Shown piece after piece: positions 169 to 20,756 of a stretch of 64,000 nucleotides of DNA (positions are counted from its first letter, which is position 1; every line of letters begins with the position of its first letter). This stretch comes from Dictyostelium discoideum (taxonomy: Eukaryota), in the NCBI GenBank assembly GCA_000004695.1, contig CM000151.3:3456001-3520000 (forward strand), in the 5' to 3' direction. The translations under genes and the position numbers were made by a program. The notes beneath the pieces were generated by a model, which had not been told where the DNA came from, did no database searches, and worked only from the letters and a program-made list of their open reading frames with translations.

Positions 169-6721
<6,553 letters not shown>

Positions 6722-7610: not shown

Positions 7611-9086
7611 ATGGTTGTACTTTCAAAATATAATGAATTTACAATTATTAATCAATTAAATGATGATAATTCAATATTATTTTTTAAAATTTGGAGAAAT
7701 ATTGTATTAAAAAAAAAGATATGGCAAGATGCAATTTTAATATCAAAATATGATATTCAAAATATTAAAGAAATAAAACAATTAAGAGAACATAAATATA
7801 GAGAATATATTAGAACAATTAAATTTGTTGATCATTTCAATGATTTATTAGAAGAAGGTGATATTCCAAACAATGTTTCAACAATTGATTTTGGTGTAGC
7901 ATTTGATACAAGAATTAGTGCTAGAGTTTTACCAAATTCGCTTACAACCCTTGACTTGGGCATACAATTTAATCAATCCATTGATTGTGGTGTTTTACCA
8001 AAAAATTTAAAAAATATTTATTTTAGTCATTTATTCAATAAACCAATACTAGTAAACTCAATTCCAAATAGTGTTAAATTAATTGATTTTAGAAATTCGC
8101 CATCGTTTAATACTGAAATTAAAATTGGATCATTGCCAAACTCATTAACCTCTTTAAATTTAGGGTATAAGTATAATATTAAATTTAAAGAAGGAGTTTT
8201 ACCAAACTCTTTAAAAAAATTAATAATTTCAGAAAATTACAATTTTCCAATTAAAAAAGGTGATTTACCAAATAGTATAACTAGTTTAACATTGGGAAAT
8301 TATGATCAAAATATTAAATCAGATGAGTTACCAGAAAGTTTAAAAGTTTTAATAATGGGCCCACTACAAACAAAACAAATTGAAATTTCAAATTTGAAAT
8401 ATATTGAAAAATTGACATTATCAGATTACTATGATGTTCAATATAAAGATTTTCCAAAATCTTTAAAAATTTTAAATTTAGCTTATAAATATAATAAACC
8501 AATTTTACCAAATTCTATTGACAATATTACTGAAATTACATTTGGTAGTGAATTTAATCAACCTATTGAATTGAGTACATTCAAGTCAATTAAGAAATTA
8601 GTATTTGGTGCTAGATTTAATCAGGAATTGAAGCCATATACTTTGAATGATGGTATTGAGAGTTTATCATTTGGTTATTTTTATAATAAAAAATTTCAAT
8701 CAAATAGTTTACCATCGACATTAACTTATTTAAAACTTGGTAGAGAATTTAATCAAATAGTTGAGCCTGGTATATTCCCAAACTCAATCAAACATTTAAT
8801 CTATAGTAATTTAAATAAATCACCATTGACCATTGGTATATTACCATCATCACTTGAAACTTTAGAATTTTTATTTTTCAATGCACCAATTGAGCCATTT
8901 TCAATTCCAAATGGTTGTAAAAAGATTATTTTAAGTTCACAATTTCAAAATCATTCAATTTCAAATAATGTTATACCAAATACTTGTACTGAATTAACAA
9001 TTTCTGAATTATATAAAAGAGAATTATTAGATTTAAATTCATTACCAAAAGGTTGTAAATTACTATATGCTTTATTAATTAATTAA
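7611..9086 (+). CDS. FNIP-repeat protein (Dictyostelium FNIP repeat family)
   Basis: Single 491-aa ORF with about 15 tandem ~22-aa repeats of the form LPNSLTxLxxGxxFNQPI, which is the FNIP repeat signature. The ATG sits directly after an A-run. Confidence 0.8.
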   Translation: MVVLSKYNEFTIINQLNDDNSILFFKIWRNIVLKKKIWQDAILISKYDIQNIKEIKQLREHKYREYIRTIKFVDHFNDLLEEGDIPNNVSTIDFGVAFDTRISARVLPNSLTTLDLGIQFNQSIDCGVLPKNLKNIYFSHLFNKPILVNSIPNSVKLIDFRNSPSFNTEIKIGSLPNSLTSLNLGYKYNIKFKEGVLPNSLKKLIISENYNFPIKKGDLPNSITSLTLGNYDQNIKSDELPESLKVLIMGPLQTKQIEISNLKYIEKLTLSDYYDVQYKDFPKSLKILNLAYKYNKPILPNSIDNITEITFGSEFNQPIELSTFKSIKKLVFGARFNQELKPYTLNDGIESLSFGYFYNKKFQSNSLPSTLTYLKLGREFNQIVEPGIFPNSIKHLIYSNLNKSPLTIGILPSSLETLEFLFFNAPIEPFSIPNGCKKIILSSQFQNHSISNNVIPNTCTELTISELYKRELLDLNSLPKGCKLLYALLIN

Positions 9087-9225
9087 TTAATTATAAAAAT
9101 AAGAGAATATTTATTTATTTATTTATTTTTAAAAAAAATATATATATAAAAAGTTATTAAATTATAAAATTACAAATAAAGAAATAAAATGTATAAAATA
9201 ATTATTTCTTTTTTTTTTTTTTTTT

Positions 9226-10020
9226 TTATGCTACACATTTAAAATCACTACAATTAATAAAACACTCACCAACTGGGTCAACTCTTTGCCAACGCACTAA
9301 TAAAATTGCATTTGAGAAACGAGTTGGCATATTTAAATTAAAAATATAAGCAGATGTTGAAGAACATGATGGATCACTAATTGAAACACTTGCAGTATTT
9401 GGGAAACTTTGGAATAATGTTAAATGATCCCATGTTAATGGAGTTGTGGTTGGGTTGAAACCTGGTTTACTAACATAGAATTCCCAGAAATTTGGATTAT
9501 GAGAAGCAGTTGCACAGAATTTATAAGTGAAACTAACATTTACAGCATTTGCAGTTGTTGGAATAATTGTTGGTGTCCATGGTGCAACAATTGACATTCC
9601 ACTTTTATCATTTGATGATGTAGTTGCATATGCTGAACATAATGAATTTGGTACTGCTGCTTTTAAAGCACTTGCTCCTTGAGCATAATTTGGAATTAAA
9701 ACTGAAAATTCATTTGATTGAATAAATTGATATTGTGGATTATTTCCTTTTGCTTTTACAAATTGAAAAGCTGAACGACATGCAGCATCAGTAATACCAG
9801 ATCCATCCTCTGGCCACCAAATATTACCTTTTGGACATCTTATTTTAAAAAAAAAAAAAATTTAATAAATTGATATTTTATTGGAATAAAAAAAAAATGA
9901 AAAAATAAATAATTACTTTTGTTGGCGAGCCATTGGATAAATTGCATACCCATGAGAATTAATTAAAGAAATTGAAATCATTGAAATTAATGATAATAGT
10001 AAAAATTTAGAAATATACAT
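9226..10020 (-). CDS. Secreted AA10-type lytic polysaccharide monooxygenase-like protein (chitin-binding domain 3 like); exons 10020-9917 and 9838-9226
   Basis: Exon 1 encodes a signal peptide, MYISKFLLLSLISMISISLINS, ending at donor AA|GTAATT (9916/9915). The acceptor ataag| lies at 9839/9840. The frame then runs open from 9838 through the track ORF 9226-9597. The predicted mature N-terminus is HGYAIYPMARQQKC, which matches the AA10 His1 motif HGYxxxPxSRxxxC. The later segments SHNPNFWEFYVSKPGF and ILLVRWQRVD align to the AA10 second-His region and C-terminal region. Confidence 0.55.
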
Positions 10021-10686
10021 TGTTTTTTTTTTTTTTTTGATTTATTTTTTATTGTTTATTTAGGAATTGAAATTAAAAAAATAAAAATTTATTCAATTGA
10101 TTTAAATACTTAAATTTTTTAAATTGTAATATTATAATTTTTTTTTTTTTTATTTGTTTATTTGAAAAAAAAAAAAAAAAGCCATTCATCTAGTAATAGA
10201 ATTATTTCAATTAATTTTACCAAAACTTTTTTTAAAAAAAAAAAAAAAAAATAGGTTGAAAAAGAATATTGATTACTTATTTAGGATTTCTATATTTAAT
10301 CAATATTCTTTTAAAAAATTATGAAAAAAAATATAAAATCCAATCTTTTTTTTCAACACACAATTCACCACAACAAATTAATAATTATATTTTTTTTTTT
10401 TTTTTTTTGATAAAAAGTGATGGTGAGATGATTAAATAAAAATGATTATTAATATAAAAAAAAAAAAAATTTTTAAATCCAAAAAATCTCACACGATATA
10501 TAATAAATAAATAAAATTAACCCATTTGAATGACAAATTTGAATTTTCTAATAATTAAAACAAGATTTTTAAAATCAATGTTTTTTTTTTTTTTTTATTA
10601 TTACTTTATTATATGTTTACATTATGATATTGATGGGATGAGGAATTTTATAAAATATTGGTTTTAAAAAAAAAAAAAAGAAAAAC

Positions 10687-10721
<35 letters not shown>

Positions 10722-10918
10722 TTTTGTTATAATTATTATGAATTGTGAAAATAAAGAAAAAATAGAAAAAAAAAATTATTGGATATATAGATAAAAAAAT
10801 TATTATTGAATATTGATTTTTGAGTGAACTAAATTATATAATATTTTAAAATATTATAAACTTAATTAAATTAAAATTAGGGGTTTAATCCAATTTTAAA
10901 AGTTGTTTGTTTTTTTGA

Positions 10919-13700
10919 TTATTGTTGTTTTTTATCATGATTATCAACAATTTTAGCAATTGAAAATTGACATAATAAATTTTTAGCAGCATTTGAATGA
11001 GCATAAACTTCACCAGTAAACATTGAAGTTGCATCTTTACCAATACCCATTTTAATGTAAGCTAAACCACCTGGGTGATCATTAACAAAAGATTCGACAT
11101 CTAATACGGTTTTGTTGATTATCATTAACTTTTTATTTTCTTTTTCAACCAAATTATTAAATTCATCGATTGTCATTGATGGTAAATCTTCTTTATTGAT
11201 ACCCCAATAGATTGATTGTTTCTTTGCGTCTAAATGTTTTTGGTGCATTTGAATCATACCTTTTTCAATTTCATTTTTGGAGAAAGTTTTCAAATCATAA
11301 GCCAAGCCTAAATAATACATTGCAGAGATCAACCATTTAGTTGGATCATATTGATAGAATTTATAAGCGTTTCTATAGTCATTTGGGAATTCATGATGGA
11401 AGTTATGATAACCTTCACCAAATGTTAATATAGCAGTCACAACTGAATCCTTTGGAGTATGTTCATCATCGTATGGAGAGTCACCTAAATAATGAGCCAA
11501 TGAATTGACCAAGAATGTGGAATGTTGAACTGTAACGAGACGAAGTACACCAGAGTAGAAATAACCACCAGCCCAATCACCCCAACCTAAACCAGCTACC
11601 AATGTTGGGAAAACGAGACCCATAAAAGTGGCGATTTTAATGTAATGTTTATGTTGCCACATAACCCATGGATCGGCGTTAAGGTCGTCAATGTTTGCTC
11701 TACCGATTTTCTTTGGATCTTGTTTGAACATTAACCAAATGAAATGGGAATGCCAGAAACCCAATGAAGCTGAATATGGATCTTTATCAGTATCGAGATA
11801 ACGATGATGAGCACGATGATCTCTTGACCACCAACGACATGAACCTTCGACAGCACCTGCACCAAATAGCAACAAGATAATACGAACTGGTAAAACTGCA
11901 CTATAAGCCTTATGAGCCCAAAGTCTATGATAACCTGCTGTAATACCCATACCAGTGAAATGATAATAAATAAATGACCAAATAAATGTTTTCAATGAAC
12001 ACTCTACATTAATTAGACCATAGAGACCAATGAATGGAATACCAATTAAAATGATAACATGTAACCAATTGATTGATTTTAAAAATTCTTTAACAGTACG
12101 ACTTGTACGACTATTTGAAACGGCTTCAGCGGTTGCTTCTGCTTTCTTTTCTTGATCTGGTACCAATGGAGCTGAATCAAATGGTGAGAAAATTTCATTT
12201 GAAAAGTTTTCACTACGGATAATTAATTCTTTAAATAATTCAGTTTCAAATGTACATTCATAAATATATTCACCCCAACTCTTTTTAAATGAATTATAAG
12301 CTTTTCTTAGATTATAATGTGGAATTGAAACTGCAATTTGTCTTGGTAATGAAAAATTAATATCTTTAACAATAAATTCAAACCATTGTGGATATGTAAT
12401 ATGTACTAAATATTTTTCAACTTCAGATGATTTCTTATCACCTTTGTTATTGTTATTATTATTATTTGATTTTTCTAATTTTGAAGCAACTTGTAATTCT
12501 TCATAAAATGGAATTGATGGTAATAATGAAGCAGTTGAAAGTAAGAAATGTAAAACTAACCATGGTGCGAACCAATAATTAAGGAATCCACTTACACCTA
12601 CAAATTTAAACATCATTGGGAAGAAAATAAATCCAAAAATGTAAACAATTGCAATTGAAACGATTGCTTTGGTTTTATCTTTTTTATCTGATAAATTTTT
12701 AGTTGAGAAATAATTTTCAGACCAATTAATAATTGATAAAATCCAAAAGAATTTACCAGTTGCCCATTGTCTAATTGGATTTGTACTTTCGGTTGTGGTA
12801 TGTGCATTAATCTTGAATTGTTCACCATTTAAAACAGCTGTCGATTTCTTTTCTGCATTATTCTTTTCTGAAATCTTGTAAGATTGGAATGGATATAACA
12901 ATGGTAACATTACAATTGTTCCAATAATTGAATTAACTAATGGATTCTTTGAAAAAGTTTTATGAATACAATCATTACCAATTACCATTAACTATTAGTG
13001 TGAGAGGTTGTCATATTTTAAAAGATATTAAAAAAAAAAAAAAAATAAAAAATAAAAAAAAAGTTTTGTTGGGTTAGTGATTAGATATTTTGGAAAAAAA
13101 AAAAAAAAGATGCAAATAAAAAAAAAAAATTTTAATTATTTTTAATTATTATTTTTTTTTTTTTTTTGTTTTTGTAAAATGGGTGCTTTTTTTTTTTTGA
13201 TGGTAATCAAAAAAAAAATAAAATAACAATCATTGTGATTGAAAAAAAAAATTTGGTAGTCTGGAACTGTGACGGTTTTTTTTTTTTCCCACTTGAAAAT
13301 TTCAAGTCACTTTCAGAAAAAAAAAAAAAAAAAAAATTTTGTTTAAAAAAAATAAAAAAAAAGTGAAAATGGAAATAATAAAAAATGAATGAATAATAAT
13401 TGTATTACTTACACCAGTAACTGAGGCACCCATTAACATCCAACCAATTGGGGTTAAGTAAGATGGCATGAGAGTAATGAATGTTGCACTTAAACCAATG
13501 AATAAGATTGTTATTAAAAGTGAACATGCTGATTTAAAATTACTTGTTTCAAAAACTTCTTTTGGAAGAGATTGTAAAATTTGATCAATAGTTAATTCTT
13601 TTGGTAATGATTTTGGTTGTTTTCTAATTGGTTTAATATTTCCATACATAACAGATGGATAAACTTTCTCCTTTAAAGGAGCTCCACTTCCTTTACCCAT
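10919..13700 (-). CDS. Tri-domain membrane desaturase: N-terminal FAD2-like domain lacking all three His boxes, then an OLE1-type delta-9 (stearoyl-CoA) desaturase, then a C-terminal cytochrome b5; exons 13700-13413 and 12991-10919; ~786 aa
   Basis: Exon 1 (within ORF 13302-13700) resembles the FAD2 N-terminus and first TM (KQPKSLPKELTIDQIL...WMLMGASVTG), with donor GGT|GTAAGT at 13412. The acceptor ctaatag| at 12992 joins in phase 0 to the 689-aa ORF. The joined sequence VTG|LMVIGNDCIHKTFS aligns without a gap to FAD2 LTGIWVIAHECGHHAFS. The positions of His box 2 (PFQSYKISEKN versus PYFSWKYSHRRHH) and His box 3 (RQIAVSIPHYNL versus HVAHHLFSTMPHYN) are likewise non-His. Downstream, in the same ORF, the classic SCD motifs are all present: HRLWAH, HRAHHR, HNFHHEFP, then a b5 heme motif HPGG. 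Residues ~310-689 align over their full length to yeast OLE1. Confidence 0.6.
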
Positions 13701-15005
13701 TTTTTATCTATAATTTTTTTTTAAATTTTATTTATATTTAGATTTTTTTTTTTTTTTTTTTTTTTTTATTAATATTTTATATTTTGGATTTTATTTTTTT
13801 AAAAAAAAAAGATATTTTTATTTAAGTAATTACTTTTTTTTTTTTTTTTACTTTACAATTAATTTAATTTTTTTTATTTTATTTTTAAATAAATAAAAAA
13901 AAAAATTATGTGGAAAGATAGGTATGAATTAAAAAAAGAAAAAAAAAAAAAAAAAAAAAGGTAAAATAAAAAAAATAAAAGAAAAAAAAAAAAAAAAAAA
14001 AAAATAATAAAAAATAAAATAAAATATTAAATAGCAACATTTAATCATATGATGGTGGGAATTCAGGTGGAACATGAAACCAAATTTTTTTTTTTTTTTT
14101 ATTTTCGGGATTATAAAAAATATCTTTATGAAAAAAAAAAAAAAAAAAATTTCCCCGTTTCTTATTTTTTTAATAATCTAAAAATAACAAGCAAAAAAAA
14201 AAAAAAAAAAAAAAAGCACCTGCATGCCATTTTGAATCCCATTCGCCGTAAAATTATCTATTTAAAAAATTATGATTCAAAATGTATATCTTTCGAAAGG
14301 AAAAAAAAAATGAAATCCAATTGAAAAAATATTACTGAATCTTACCACACAATGAAAAAAAAAAAAAAAAATTAATTATTAAAAGAACAAATAATAAATA
14401 GAATAGAAAAAAAAAAAAAAATTAATTTATCTAAAAAATCTTTTTATTATTATTTTTCTTTTAATTGGAACTTTAAATGACCTTTTACTTTCAAAATGAC
14501 GAATTTTCATTCACATTTTATTTTTAAAATTATAATAAAAAAAAATTTAAAAATTGGATATTTTAAATAAAATTTTATAAAAGAAACGATTAAAAAAAAA
14601 AATAAAAAAAAAAAAAAGAAGAAAAATAATAAAAAGTTTAATTTATATTAGATTTTTTTTTTTTTTTTTTTTTTTTAAATACTTGTTTTATCTTTATTCT
14701 TTTCATTTCATTCACCAAATTATTTTGATCTGAGATTAAATAATTACTTAATTTTTTTTTTTTTTTTCTTTTATTATTACCAACCTGTTAAACACAAAAA
14801 ACAAATTACTAGGAGTTTTAAAAATTATGGTCAAACTTTTTCCTTATTTTTTCTGTTTAATAATTATTATTATTATTATTTTTTTTATTTTTATTTTTAT
14901 TTTTTTTTTTGTTTAGAAAAATTATTTTTATTATTTATTATTTTAAAATTATTTTTATTATTTATTATTTTTATTTTTTTTATTTATTTATTTTTTTTTA
15001 TTTTT

Positions 15006-18000
15006 TTACTTTTTAAATTTGTTTAAAGTACTTGTACTTGTATTTAAATCTAATAAAGTTGAAGTTAATTGATTAACCATTGAAGTTAATTGTGAATCAG
15101 AGTCAGAATCTTTTTCATCAGAAGCAGCTTTAACACTTGATAAAATTTTAAATTGACAACTTAGTGTTTGTAAAACACCAATACCATGACTACATCTTGT
15201 TTGTAACATTTTATTTGAAGTTGGAGTTGATTTAATATTATTTGAAACCTCTGTTGAATATTTATTTAAAAGTATAGATATATTTCTACCACATAATAAA
15301 ATTTGTTTTTTATCACCAATTTTAATTGCATTTGCATAAGCTTCCAATTCTTTACCAATTGTACCAAGTTGTTCATTACCTGATATATTTGACATTTGAT
15401 TTGCTGCATTAATACATGAATCTTCTAATGATGCACCTTTATCACTTGGTTTAAAAGTATTAATTGGTTGTGGTGTTTTATTTGGTATTGGTTTTGTTGC
15501 TGTTGTAGTTGCTTCTGTAGTAGTAGTTGTTGTTGGTGGTACAGTTTTAGGATTTGTAGATTGAGGTTGAGTTGTTAATTTAATTGGTACTCTAGTTTCA
15601 ATTGGTCTAATTGGTTTTGTAATTGTAATATTATTTGTATTTGTTAAAATTGGTTTTTGAGGTTGTGAAGATGATCTTGGTTTATAATTTACTTGAGCTG
15701 TTGAAATGATTTTACCATTATTTGATGATGATGATGAAAATATTGGTTTAGTTGAATTTGTTTGAATTGAAACATAACGTTCAATTTTATTTGGTGATTC
15801 AACAATTGGCAATAGATTATTTGACTTAATTGAATCAACCAATTGTTTAATATCTTTTGATTTTGATTGAGAGGATTGTGATAGTTTGATACGATTATCT
15901 TCAATCTTTGGTTGATTAATACTTTGAATTGAATTTATTAAATTACAAAGTGAAGAGATTGACATATCCTTCTCAGCTTTAATTGTGTCTGTCAATTTAG
16001 ACTGTTTCAAATTCTTTAAATAATCTTTTGAAATTGAGTTAACATCAGATAATTTAGATTTCAATTGTGATTCAAATTCTTTTAATTCTTTTTCATTTAA
16101 ACCTTGTTGTTTCAATAATGGTATTAAATGATTTGATTGTAAATTTGATAGTTTTGAAATATATTCATCAATTTGTTTTGAATTATCATTGGTCACTGTT
16201 GAAACATCAATTGAATCATTTAATTTAATTAAAGTTGCTTGATATTGTTTAATTGCATTTTTAAATTGGAATATAGGATCAATTGAATCTAATTGATTTA
16301 AAATTTCATAAATTGGTGATTCAATTTTAGTTTGTAAATTCTCTAATAATTCTCTCTTCTTTTGATCATTATTATTATCATTTAAACAATTATTTGATGC
16401 AACAATTAATTGAGGTGTTAAAGTTTCAATTTCTTTTAATGATTTACCAATTATTAATTTTTTACTTTCATTTAATTTTATATCATTATTAATTAATTGT
16501 TGTTTTAATTTTGAATAATTTTCTAAAATTTTTTTTGTAGTTTCTTGAATTTTTACATTATTATTAGCATTATTATTATTATTAATTGGTTGTTGAGTTG
16601 ATTGTCTTGATAATTTTTGAATTAAATTTGAATGATTTAATAATAATTGTAATGGTGTTGATAATTGTTCATTAATTAAATTATCTAAAGTTTGTTGGAA
16701 TTGTGATCTAACTTTTTCAAATTGTTCTCTTGAAATTGGATTTAGGGGTTGTTTTAAATATTGATTAATTTTATTTGATAAATCATCGGTGGAATCATTA
16801 TTTTTACCATTTAATTTATTTTCTAATTTATTAATTGCATCTCTAATTCTTTGTTGTCTTTCTTTATCTAAATAAGATTGTTGTCTTGATAAATCGAAAT
16901 TTGAAGAATCTATACATTTTCCAGCCAATTTCTCTAAACGTTTTAAATTTACTTTAAATTGATTTTCATCTTTAATTAACATACCATTATTATCGATTTT
17001 ATTTGAAAGTTTTTTAAATTGGTCAGAGTAATAAGGTGTTTTAGAAATTAATTTATAATTTGAATTATTATTTGAAGATTGTTTTTCAATTTCATTTAAG
17101 TTTCTTTTAATTTGATTATTAATGAAACCAACTTTCTTTTGATAGGATGCTTCGGTTGGTATATCTTTTGATTGTAACATTGATTTAATAGTTTGTAATT
17201 GTAATGGTATTAATGTTGATAATTCTTTTGAACATTCTTTAATTATTAAATTTCTTTCAAAATCTGCATTATTTTGATTAGCATCAATTAATACTGCCGT
17301 TGAACTTGTTAATGAATCTGCTAATGATAATATTTCTTGATGTAATTTAACTAATGATCTTGATGATTCAACAACACCTTTTGAATCTGAATCTAATGCA
17401 TTTGATTCTAATTTATCTAATTCTTTCTTTTCATCATTAATTAATTTTTTAATCTTTTTATCTTCTTCTTCATCATCATCATCATCATTATTATTATTAT
17501 TATCATTGTTATTATTATTATTATTATTTTCAATATTTTCTTTATCAATTATTTGATTAATATTTGGATTTAAAATTAATTGTTCTAATGGTTGAATAAT
17601 TTGATCTAATAATTGTTGATGTTTTTTCTCTAATTCTTTATCATTTGGATTTGATTGTAATTGTGTTGCTTGTAATGTTAATGTTGGTATAATTGAATTT
17701 ATTGATTGTTTAATTGTATTTTGAGAGATTGTAGTTGGTGATAAATCTTGTTGTTGTTTACCTTTACCAGTTGCAAAGAAAATTGATTTTGAACAATTAT
17801 CAACACTCTCTGAAACTGTATCTAGGATTGTTAAAAGTTTTTCAATTTGATCATCACTTTTTTCACTCTCCAAGAATGATAAAGCAGCTTCAACTTGATC
17901 AACGATAGATTTCTTTACAGTTTCCAAGGAATTTGCTAAAAGTAATTGAATATTTGGATCCAAGGTTTCAGAAACTTCTTTTGAAGTCAAATGATTTGAA

Positions 18001-20756
18001 GCCAATTTCAATAGTTCACTTTGTTGATAAACTATTTTTTCAATTGATTGAGATATTAAATCATCTTTACCAACTTGATAAGCAGTTTCAATATAATATC
18101 TTGAATTAATTTGATGTTCTTTAAAACCTTTAATTATATTCTCATTAATTGGGTGTGGTTTTAATAATAAAGCTTGTTGATATGATGATAATTCTTCAAT
18201 TAATGGATTTAATTTTAATAATCTTGTTAATTCAATTATTGATTTTTTAACAGTTTTACAAGCTTTTGTTAATTGTGGATCATCATTAATTTTTGCAGTT
18301 TTACCAGCCAATGCGATTGAAGAGGATATTGAATTTTTAAATAGATTTATTGAAGAATCAATTTGATCTTTAAAATCTTGACTATTTGAATTTTGTTTAA
18401 TTTCATTACCCAATTGAATTAGTTTATCTTGCTCACCAATTAATTGTTTCAATGTAACAACTGATTTATTTGCTTCATTATTCTTTAAATATTGAATTAA
18501 ATCATTAAATAATTTTAAAAGTTTTTGGTCATTTGATAGATTTTCCAATTGTTTCAATTCTTCTAATCTTTCATTATCTCTTTTAATTTCATTTTCTTTA
18601 TTTTCTTTAATAATCTCTTTATTAATCTCTTCATTAATTCCATCAATAATTTCATCATTTAAATTTTCAATTGGTATAATTACTTGACGACCACCACCAT
18701 CACCATCATTAGTGGAGGAAGATGGTAAATTTGATAAATTTGATATATTATTAATTATATTATCTAAAATATATGATAAATTATCTTTTGAACCATTTAA
18801 ATCTTTTGATAATTCTTGATTTAATTGATTTTGATAAGATTCTAATTGTTTAATTTGATTTTCAATTAATGGTTGATCAAGCATTTGATCTTTGTAATTA
18901 TAAATTATAGAATTAATTCTATTATTTATATCTTTTTGAGTTGATTGTAATTTTGGTGAATTTGGTGTAACCGATTGTGGATGGCAATTTAATAATTGTA
19001 ATTTTAATAATGGTACAACTTCAAATGATTTCAAACAATCAATTAATGATTTTGATAAATCTGATATCAATTGATTTGATTTTAAAAACTCTTGTTTTAC
19101 ATCCTTATCAAATGGTGATTTTGAAAATTTATTCATACCAATATCTCTTCTATTTTGAACTTCTTTTAAAAGTTGATCAATTGTTTTCTTTACAAATTCT
19201 TTTAATAATGTATCATTTGATAATACTAATTCAGATTCAATTAATCCAACTAAATTTGCATTATCATTTTCTAAATCTTTTAATAATTTATCAATTAGTT
19301 TTGAATTTTCTTCAATATTATTATTATTATTATTGTTACTATTGTTGTTGATATTATTTAATAAAACTTGATTTGAAGAATTTTCTTGTTTTGATAATAA
19401 TTCATTTGAATCTGAAATTGTTGATGGTTCCATTAATGATTGAATCTTTGATAATGGTAATTTCATTGAATTTGAAATATCAGTAAATTGTTTTCTATTT
19501 TCAAGATTTGTTGAATCTTTTAAGTAAAGTTTTGCAGCTTGAATTTGTAATGGTAATAATTCTGATAATTTTGAAACTGCTTCATTAATTTCTGGATTAA
19601 TTGAACTATTATTATTATTATTATTATCATCATCTGGTGTTGTTGATGTACTTGTTATTAATGCTTCAATTTGATGTTGATTCTTTGCTAAGTGTTTTAA
19701 TGTACCAACTATTGCTTGAGTATTATTTGCAATTGAATGATCTGATAAAATGGTTAAAACATCTTCTTTTGCTTTAATTGCATTTAAAAATTGATCTTCT
19801 TTTGTTGAAACTATACCATCGATTGAATTTAAACAATCTTGAATTGATTCTAAACCTTCAATCATTTTATTAATTTCATCATTCTTTACATTTTGATTAC
19901 CTGATGATCTTGTTACTAATGTTGCTGATTGAATATATTTTTGAATTAAATCATTCTTTAATTTATTTATTGATTTTTCTAAAATCTCTTTTTCATTTTT
20001 ATTAATATTATTATTATTCTTTATATGTTGATTTAAAGTATCATTTAAAATTGGTATTAATTGTTGAATTGAATTTGAAATTGTTTCAGTTGCCATTGGA
20101 TCACCTCTACATGCTGCTCTTAATTCTTCAATACAACTTTTAGAAATACCTCTTATTAAATCATTTAGTAAATTATTATTTTCATTCTTATCAATATTAT
20201 TATTATTATTAATTTCATTATTAATTTCAATACTATTATTATTATTATTATTATTACTATTATTATTATCATTATAAATTGTTTTAATATTTGAAGTTGA
20301 ATATTGTGATGGAATTGGTGATTGAATATAATTATTTACATTTGTAAATTCTGGTAATGATAAAGTTGGTGAATTTGTTTGGATTAAATTAAAAGTATGA
20401 TTTAATTGATTTAATAATGAATTTTGATGATTTATAAATTTTTGTTTTTGTGATGGATCGTCTAAATCTGAAAAGATATCATTAACAATATCAATTAAAC
20501 GATTGGCATCCTCTACCAATTGTTGTGATAATTTAATAATATCATCGTCATCGTCATCTATAAATTGATTTTGTAATGGAGATGATAATTGATTCTCCTT
20601 TGCTTTAACTTCTAAACATGATGAATATTCAATTAAATTTGAAATAGTTTGATTTACTAATTCTCCAAATCCATTAAACTCTTCTCTATCAATCATACCA
20701 AATGAATTTTCATTATTTTTAAATTGATTTTTACAAGTTTCAATTAAATGTTTTAA

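Follow-up and report, generated by a model that had tools for sequence, protein, structure and literature searches.

What does a desaturase-like domain that has lost most of its iron-binding histidines do in the same polypeptide as an intact desaturase? This question is raised by a gene of the slime mould Dictyostelium discoideum, which lies on the reverse strand at positions 10919..13700 of the window analysed here, i.e. the whole stretch of 64,000 nucleotides taken from contig CM000151.3 (assembly GCA_000004695.1, positions 3,456,001 to 3,520,000), with a G+C content of 21.7%. To our knowledge, membrane desaturases are textbook single-site enzymes, and the known fusions join them to cytochrome b5 and not to each other. 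Reading and translating the DNA of the gene gave two exons and one intron, which encode a protein of 786 amino acids. We regard it as likely that this dictyostelid delta-9 desaturase is one chain of approximately 91 kDa, in which a dead omega-6 desaturase domain of the FAD6/DesA type (hereafter N-domain) is followed by a flexible linker, an active delta-9 desaturase and a cytochrome b5 domain (b5), and that the non-catalytic N-domain was left from an ancestral tandem enzyme. More tentatively, we propose that an evolutionary series leads from a live-live tandem desaturase, as in glaucophytes, to a cis-fused pseudo-desaturase, and that the delta-9 desaturase of Dictyostelium might by now need the dead domain, as a lipid-binding or regulatory partner, for its proper function.

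The N-terminal domain and its former His boxes

The N-domain comprises residues 36-365 (12185..13595, reverse strand, a range that spans the intron). When the first 387 amino acids were scanned alone, the score of the FA_desaturase profile at residues 82-253 was 43.3 bits (E 5e-11; gathering cut-off 29.7), a similarity that is far beyond chance. An earlier interpretation made from the letters of the DNA alone (the sequence-only reading) had made its case depend on a desaturase profile similarity of residues 1-290, and the N-domain on its own indeed passes the threshold. Compared alone with intact stand-alone desaturases, it reached E values of 9e-54 to 3e-41 at 30-34% identity over 87-88% of its length. 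Moreover, structure prediction confidently gave a four-helix membrane bundle with a cytosolic cap, i.e. the desaturase/AlkB fold, with hydrophobic stretches at approximately residues 54-100 and 202-233. According to the model, the N-domain keeps the desaturase fold.

Its three His boxes have been replaced. In the alignment with intact relatives, the former box 1 reads NDCIH instead of HDCxH (residues 102-106; 12962..12976), box 2 reads EKNNA instead of HxxHH (residues 138-142; 12854..12868, coordinates from the residue-to-base mapping) and box 3 reads SLPRQ instead of HxPHH (residues 310-314; 12338..12352), all on the reverse strand, as is the conserved IPHYNLRKAY after the former box 3 (12296-12325). 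The replacements in boxes 1 and 2 had been recognised before; box 3 had been placed at RQIAV, three residues off, and neither stretch contains a histidine. In total, one of the eight canonical iron ligands is left in D. discoideum, and only 3 of 16 conserved His columns, which are those with a histidine in at least 90% of 21 intact sequences of the FAD6/DesA type. In the rat SCD mutagenesis by Shanklin et al. in 1994, all eight box histidines reportedly proved essential. Since the eight box histidines are required in this enzyme class and seven of them are lost, we infer that no di-iron centre can form in the N-domain and that it has no desaturase activity. The proposal of a catalytically dead desaturase-like domain upstream of an intact delta-9 desaturase is thus supported by the sequence. 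Without its His boxes, the N-domain is to be regarded as a homologue or pseudo-desaturase domain and should not be filed as an enzyme of the family. The three marks of a pseudoenzyme, i.e. loss of ligands, a kept fold and purifying selection (see below), are all found in it.

The subfamily differs from the one originally suggested. All matches to the N-domain of the window protein are FAD6-like proteins, and the stand-alone relatives carry HDCGH, HNxHH and HVPHH, some of them with transit-peptide-like extensions. Compared with chloroplast omega-6 desaturases (Physcomitrium, Spinacia, Dunaliella, Marchantia) and with the enzymes of Synechocystis, Calothrix and Microcoleus, an intact N-domain in a fused protein of the glaucophyte Cyanoptyche shows 50-59% identity. 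Furthermore, several motifs of the N-domain fit FAD6, namely DC (not EC) in box 1, KDINFSLP compared to HDINVHVP, and IPHYNLRKAY. In PDB, the FAD6-like 8XKS chain K was the only sequence match as well as the best match by fold. NCBIfam did not assist the classification, as its matches to models of bacterial DesA/DesB and GntB were weak and below threshold. In comparisons that did not directly include FAD2 sequences, the evidence points to the plastid/cyanobacterial FAD6/DesA omega-6 type rather than to FAD2 of the endoplasmic reticulum (ER). Hence, the desaturase homology and the implied delta-12/omega-6 function of the sequence-only reading hold, but its assignment to FAD2 does not, the relatives being FAD6/DesA. 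D. discoideum, unlike Physarum, does not make linoleate (review PMC11900508), which fits a dead omega-6 site.

A loop of the N-domain contains a poly-Asn tract (12446-12466, residues 272-278) at a place that is occupied by a short conserved stretch in intact enzymes. The tract differs between two D. discoideum assemblies and explains several of the amino-acid differences between them.

Both domains in one reading frame

The gene starts with an ATG at 13700. Exon 1 (13413..13700, reverse strand) consists of 96 codons for residues 1-96, i.e. the N-terminal tail and the first membrane-helix pair of the N-domain, and ends with ...ASVTG at 13413. It is followed by an intron of phase 0 (12992..13412, reverse strand; GTAAGT...AATAG) with 421 nt, which is long by Dictyostelium standards. 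Exon 2 (10919..12991, reverse strand) resumes the frame at 12991 with LMVIGNDC... and runs without a stop until TAA at 10919-10921; it encodes residues 97-786, and thereby everything from the remaining part of the N-domain through linker and delta-9 domain to b5 in one uninterrupted stretch. The strand, coordinates, frame and splice proposed earlier (13413/12991 join, 786 aa), as well as the single open reading frame (ORF) from the dead domain into delta-9 and b5, were therefore borne out by reading the DNA.

The exon join, which had been deduced from a gap-free alignment, is now backed by comparative data. The exon 1 length of 288 nt is also found in a second D. discoideum assembly (L002) and in D. 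purpureum (L003), and the intron position is codon-identical in both (448 and 244 nt, respectively). In Acytostelium, the intron is apparently at the equivalent place, where the first ORF stops at the conserved ...ASITG. The junction sits within the conserved block TG/L.VIG.DC (the slash marks the exon boundary), and transcript-derived orthologues run unbroken across it. A 786-aa model deposited for the second D. discoideum assembly (P0006) is 98% identical to the window protein. The in-frame continuity of both domains exists at the DNA level in four genomes (the window, Acytostelium L001, L002 and D. purpureum L003). The window protein contains no Met between residues 224 and 443, and seven further dictyostelid sequences (six species and the second D. 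discoideum) have no Met in the 45 residues preceding the delta-9 domain. A linker region without Met means that there is no ATG start for a product consisting of the delta-9 part only.

The intron carries a comparatively G+C-rich island with a perfect palindrome, ACTTGAAATTTTCAAGT, at 13291-13307. According to the intron alignment, island and palindrome are kept in the near-identical D. discoideum assembly and absent from the D. purpureum intron. The Rfam search of 10400-14400 on both strands at a permissive threshold gave zero matches, i.e. the intron holds no known RNA family.

The delta-9 desaturase and cytochrome b5 half

On the complete 786-aa protein, Pfam found FA_desaturase (PF00487) twice and Cyt-b5 (PF00173; 48.3 bits, cut-off 23.7) once, which is the domain content that the sequence-only reading had expected from a HMMER search. 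Behind the N-domain follows the inter-domain linker (residues 366-400; 12080..12184), which is poorly conserved, predicted to be disordered and free of Met. The OLE1/SCD-type delta-9 acyl-CoA desaturase domain, supported by Pfam and the SCD1 alignment, comprises residues 401-690 (11210..12079) with HRLWAH (residues 451-456; 11912-11929), HRAHH (residues 488-492; 11804-11818) and HNFHH (residues 625-629; 11393-11407). The cytochrome b5 domain, supported by the PF00173 match and matches to PDB b5 chains, comprises residues 711-777 (10949..11149) with the haem-binding HPGG (residues 735-738; 11066-11077). All these features are on the reverse strand.

Mouse SCD1 (PDB 4YMK) aligned to the delta-9 half with an E value of 2e-58, and HRLWAH, HRAHH, NSLAH (592-596) and HNFHH stand opposite their SCD1 equivalents. 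The delta-9 His motifs and the HPGG of b5 are invariant in an alignment of 40 fused proteins. Both the intact delta-9 desaturase, which had been recognised by HRLWAH, HRAHHR and HNFHHEFP, and the C-terminal b5 with HPGG were thus verified. Residues 401-690 show every sequence character of the OLE1/SCD-type delta-9 family that could be checked here. In addition, delta-9 regioselectivity on acyl-CoA can be inferred from 53-59% identity to fungal delta-9 enzymes together with the occurrence of 9-16:1 and 5,9-dienes, since D. discoideum produces 9-16:1, 5,9-16:2 and 5,11-18:2 (review PMC11900508). A proteome and transcriptome study of D. discoideum discusses SCD as an ER stearoyl-CoA desaturase with a b5 domain in the context of fatty-acid metabolism and does not mention a second desaturase domain (PMC6830349).

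Distribution of the fusion and selection on the dead domain

The search with the whole protein, in which matches with at least 95% coverage and 700-800 aa were accepted as full-length, showed that no sampled dictyostelid genus lacks the fusion, which was found in D. discoideum, D. purpureum, Polysphondylium violaceum, Cavenderia fasciculata, Heterostelium album, Tieghemostelium lacteum and Synstelium polycarpum. For Acytostelium subglobosum it was read from the DNA (DF837575.1, L001), where a single ORF at 8715-10457 leads from the dead domain on into delta-9 and b5. Outside the dictyostelids, it occurs in the protosteloid amoeba Clastostelium recurvatum, in Diphylleia rotans, Paulinella micropora and Ancoracysta twista, in the glaucophytes Cyanophora paradoxa and Cyanoptyche gloeocystis, and full-length in dozens of metagenome and metatranscriptome clusters. 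The fusion, which the sequence-only reading had proposed to look for in other dictyostelid and amoebozoan genomes, is thus present in all eight dictyostelid genera sampled and in Clastostelium. Its presence throughout Dictyostelia and in four other eukaryotic supergroup-level lineages refutes the earlier idea of a recent fusion. Fused sequences of Clastostelium and Diphylleia (Trinity), Cyanoptyche (MMETSP) and Ancoracysta (TSA) come from transcript assemblies; as these are full-length, one mRNA covers both domains in the four species. When residues 97-365 were compared exhaustively to 1.84 billion cluster representatives, 217 relatives were found at E <= 1e-3, at least a dozen of which are fused representatives (50% identity level).

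Selection has acted on the dead domain as well. Dictyostelid proteins share 63-81% identity with the window protein in the N-domain and 67-80% in the delta-9 domain, and the proportion of invariant columns among seven dictyostelid sequences is similar, too (41% and 44%, respectively). In comparison with the D. purpureum coding sequence, the ratio of non-synonymous to synonymous substitution rates (dN/dS) is 0.13 for the N-domain, 0.16 for the delta-9 domain, 0.26 for b5 and 0.59 for the linker. By this comparison, purifying selection on the N-domain is as strong as on the catalytic domain, perhaps somewhat weaker within D. discoideum. No frameshift or stop occurs in the 40 aligned full-length fused proteins. 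The invariant blocks of the N-domain (VIGNDC.H, GTIVMLPLLYPFQS, NYW.APWL..HFL, KDiNf.lPR..a..IPHYNLRkAY and FSneIFsPFD) correspond to those parts of the cap domain that lie around the active site of live enzymes, and N102, D103, C104 and H106 in the former box 1 are invariant among dictyostelids. Because the invariant blocks surround the former active site, a retained pocket is suggested rather than a mere membrane anchor.

Three further proteins, P0258 (639 aa), P0267 (674 aa) and P0285 (659 aa), have an intact FAD6-like box 3, P0258 and P0267 also an intact box 1, and all three lack delta-9 and b5 motifs. They may represent different fusions of a FAD6-like desaturase.

Graded loss of the His boxes

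Neighbour-joining of the delta-9-b5 part separated all fused proteins, including those of glaucophytes, from the unfused OLE1-type enzymes of fungi and Planoprotostelium in 70 of 100 bootstraps, and the amoebozoan fused proteins cluster together. This split speaks for a single fusion event. The fused proteins form a gradual series with respect to the state of their N-domain. In glaucophytes, the three His boxes are intact and 16 of 16 conserved His columns are present. Diphylleia and one environmental group have intact boxes 1 and 2, box 3 is reduced to xxPHY, and 9-11 of 16 columns are kept. Clastostelium, Paulinella and large environmental groups are left with box 1 and a single His in box 2 (4-6 of 16 columns), and dictyostelids, Ancoracysta and a few others have nearly no box His (2-4 of 16). 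The apparent order of ligand loss is box 3, then box 2, then box 1. Given this graded loss across lineages, the ancestral protein was most likely a tandem enzyme in which both sites were live.

Some intermediate forms deserve to be mentioned separately. In the environmental fused proteins P0034, P0037, P0038 and P0039, boxes 1 and 2 are intact, with the exception of box 2 in P0037, which reads HNEQH, and box 3 is Q(V/I)PHY. Since front-end desaturases typically begin box 3 with Gln, this class might keep some activity. The exchange of the first His in box 1 to Asn (HDC to NDC) occurs in P0019, P0021, P0024, P0026, P0015, P0308 and all dictyostelids. Its occurrence in several groups that are separate in the trees suggests parallel single-base changes or a favoured replacement.

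A possible role of the dead domain

We assume the following scenario. The chain would consist of the dead omega-6 domain, a flexible linker of approximately 35 residues, the di-iron delta-9 desaturase and cytochrome b5. Its delta-9-b5 part would work like Ole1, with b5 handing electrons to the di-iron centre and 16:0/18:0-CoA being desaturated at C9, in agreement with the 9-16:1 and the 5,9- and 5,11-dienes found in D. discoideum. In the ancestor, omega-6 and delta-9 sites would both have been live and would have shared one b5 on the cytosolic face of the ER, a state that may survive in Cyanophora and Cyanoptyche. As established from SCD1, a desaturase unit has four membrane helices and both ends in the cytosol. 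The tandem fusion would thus be topologically neutral and place both active sites and b5 on the same side of the membrane. In lineages that ceased to produce linoleate by the tandem route, the omega-6 site would have lost its ligands stepwise. The dead domain would then have become a non-catalytic module with cap and tunnel kept, which could bind an acyl chain or a lipid and/or scaffold the delta-9 domain. Its retained acyl or lipid pocket could serve the neighbouring delta-9 enzyme as scaffold, as substrate or product holder, or as sensor. A precedent is FAD6a of the Chlamydomonas Orf2971-FtsHi motor, which has the FAD6 fold with partly lost His boxes and no iron density, and in which fatty-acid-shaped density was seen in the tunnel where SCD1 binds stearoyl-CoA (bioRxiv 10.1101/2024.09.02.610899). 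By analogy, the N-domain probably binds lipid or acts as a scaffold for the delta-9 desaturase, and this is the least certain step.

However, several results weigh against this scenario. Relative to the near-identical D. discoideum assembly, 10 non-synonymous and 11 synonymous differences were counted in the N-domain (dN/dS 0.23), and the delta-9 domain gives a dN/dS of 0.04; constraint on the N-domain may thus be somewhat weaker than on the catalytic domain, with small counts and some of the changes in the poly-Asn loop. The neighbour-joining tree of the N-domain does not unite all fused N-domains in a single group (6 of 100 bootstraps): the glaucophyte domains are placed among FAD6-like sequences that stand alone, and the degenerate domains form a cluster of long branches, for which reason this tree is not decisive on a single origin. 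It is the delta-9 tree by itself, obtained with a simple distance method, that favours a single origin. In the full-length AlphaFold model, the individual domains are confident, but the predicted template modelling score (pTM) is 0.50, linker residues 358-393 have a predicted local distance difference test (pLDDT) below 50, and there is no confident contact between the membrane domains. The absence of a predicted interface weakens, without excluding, an intramolecular scaffold. Finally, FAD6a is the single structural precedent for the proposed lipid binding.

The sequence-only reading had considered a regulatory or substrate-channelling module, and both are conceivable. The N-domain could be a regulatory module, for example a sensor of membrane unsaturation or a degradation and turnover signal, which tunes the activity or abundance of the delta-9 enzyme instead of being a passive scaffold. 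The strong purifying selection on the cytosolic cap blocks near the old active site would fit a ligand-sensing pocket, and the flexible linker and the missing fixed interface in the prediction fit a regulated rather than a constitutive contact; we also count in its favour that the N-terminal regions of mammalian SCD1 and yeast Ole1 govern rapid turnover. But no sequence feature specific to regulation was found here, and the sequence data agree equally well with a regulatory module and with the acyl- or lipid-binding scaffold, which may hold together, so that we rate regulation as the leading role rather unlikely but worth considering. It is more doubtful that the N-domain was kept only as a topogenic or ER-anchoring element on which the delta-9 part came to depend once the two were fused, with no specific ligand or partner. 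It does provide the first signal-anchor helices of the chain (~54-100, 202-233), and the delta-9 domain is without its own start codon. Anchoring, however, needs hydrophobicity and not sequence, yet 41% of the columns are invariant across dictyostelids, and conservation is highest in cap motifs outside the membrane, namely GNDC.H, LPLLYPFQS and IPHYNLRKAY. Moreover, unfused OLE1-type enzymes insert without such a domain, and deletion of a four-helix unit would leave the topology unchanged.

Still less can be said for the assumption that the N-domain is a neutral relic, a decaying pseudo-domain without function. The catalytic ligands are gone and a poly-Asn tract that varies between D. discoideum assemblies was inserted in a loop, but a dN/dS versus D. 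purpureum equal to that of the catalytic domain, 63-81% identity across the whole Dictyostelia, intact frames in all 40 fused proteins and a confidently predicted fold make neutral decay highly improbable. Two neighbouring genes, a desaturase-like pseudogene and a delta-9 desaturase, that are in frame by chance, or a chain that is cleaved into separately acting parts, are scarcely more credible: the linker, predicted to be disordered, could be accessible to proteases, whereas the in-frame continuity is conserved in four genomes and in transcript assemblies from four distant species, the linker offers no Met for a separate start, and no AT-rich intergenic spacer lies between the domains. Hence, the neutral relic and the two separate genes were set aside because of the selection data, the conserved continuity and the missing delta-9 start codon. 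An enzymatic activity with a different metal site or chemistry is also very hard to reconcile with the data. The invariant N102, D103, C104 and H106 could in principle bind a single metal ion, but the domain has lost seven of eight canonical ligands together with 13 of the 16 conserved His columns, and we know of no membrane desaturase that functions without His boxes. The lack of linoleate in D. discoideum (PMC11900508) likewise speaks against it. A non-catalytic N-domain inherited from a tandem enzyme remains our preferred explanation.

Public annotation, genomic neighbourhood and significance

The gene itself is not new, because fused models of 732-786 aa have been deposited for D. discoideum, D. 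purpureum, Polysphondylium, Cavenderia, Heterostelium and Tieghemostelium, several of them labelled 'delta 9 fatty acid desaturase'. In full-text literature searches, whose scope left out most subscription journals, we found no description of the tandem architecture, the intact glaucophyte form or the conserved dead domain. The statement of the sequence-only reading that the architecture is undescribed can thus be kept for the literature that could be searched, but not for public gene models. Automatic annotation either names such proteins plain 'delta-9 desaturase' or splits them wrongly, as in the models of Acytostelium and Synstelium. The deposited Acytostelium model (P0001, 337 aa, 'partial'; L001 8001-10543) ends past the dead domain with a spurious tail, i.e. 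this public annotation is wrong. The EukProt model P0013 of Synstelium polycarpum reads GTESHHTPTRYLCIVCAGD... at the exon 1/exon 2 junction and the position of box 1, which is probably a mis-predicted splice and not real sequence.

The desaturase gene is surrounded by genes for a Sec7/BIG-type ARF exchange factor (493-4965, reverse strand), a FNIP-repeat protein (7611-9086, forward strand), a LPMO_10-like protein (exon at 9226-9597, reverse strand) and a 1896-aa ORF with no Pfam domain (15006-20696, reverse strand). No functional link with the desaturase or with lipid metabolism was apparent among these four neighbouring genes. The order of the large gene, the desaturase and LPMO_10 is the same in D. 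purpureum (L003).

If the dead domain is indeed an obligatory partner, neither a natural fusion of two membrane desaturases nor a pseudo-desaturase that acts in cis on a live desaturase would, as far as found, have been described before. The live-live state in glaucophytes and the dead-live state in slime moulds and several other protists pose the question of whether one b5 feeds two di-iron centres, and the tandem chain poses the question of an oleate hand-over between the sites despite the difference between the acyl-CoA type and the acyl-lipid type. Furthermore, an iron-free desaturase fold that has been held by selection over hundreds of millions of years raises the question of its role. 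The stepwise loss of His boxes across lineages would provide a clean natural case of the transition from enzyme to pseudoenzyme, and since Dictyostelium is genetically tractable, the dead domain is accessible to direct experiment.

Comparison with known systems

Residues 401-786 share domain order, His motifs and HPGG with the fungal OLE1-type delta-9 desaturases that carry a C-terminal b5, such as Ole1 of S. cerevisiae, whose core is that of mammalian SCD1 (PDB 4YMK, 4ZYO); the identity of fungal OLE1-type enzymes to the window protein is 53-59% over the delta-9-b5 half. However, fungal OLE1-type enzymes and SCD1 start approximately 50-100 residues ahead of the first membrane helix, whereas the window protein has a domain of approximately 330 residues with desaturase fold plus a linker in this place. 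The fused delta-9 domains form their own cluster in the tree, apart from unfused OLE1-type enzymes.

With plastid FAD6 and cyanobacterial DesA, the N-domain of the window protein is homologous over its whole length, and it shares their fold, the four-helix layout and the motifs TGLxVIGxDC, PLxYP, HDIN-like and IPxYNLR. In contrast to them, it has one of the eight His ligands, is fused to delta-9-b5 and lacks a plastid transit peptide. FAD6 and DesA take electrons from ferredoxin; in the window protein, cytochrome b5 is the only redox partner in cis. FAD6a, also named 'FADL', from the Orf2971(Ycf2)-FtsHi chloroplast import motor (PDB 8XKS chain K, 8XQW chain M) is a separate inner-envelope protein of 682 aa in an import complex. 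Unlike the N-domain described here, it is not fused to an active desaturase or b5, and the sequence identity of approximately 20% indicates that its ligands were lost independently from those of the dictyostelid N-domain.

The closest counterparts are found in glaucophytes. The proteins of Cyanophora paradoxa (EP00741_P011027, 777 aa) and Cyanoptyche gloeocystis (MMETSP1086 transcript, 776 aa) have the same architecture and length as the window protein and belong to the same delta-9 tree cluster, with 60-63% identity in the delta-9 domain and 33-34% in the N-domain. Their N-domains have three intact His boxes with all 16 conserved His columns, the delta-9 boxes are intact as well, and the glaucophyte fusions are therefore probably bifunctional.

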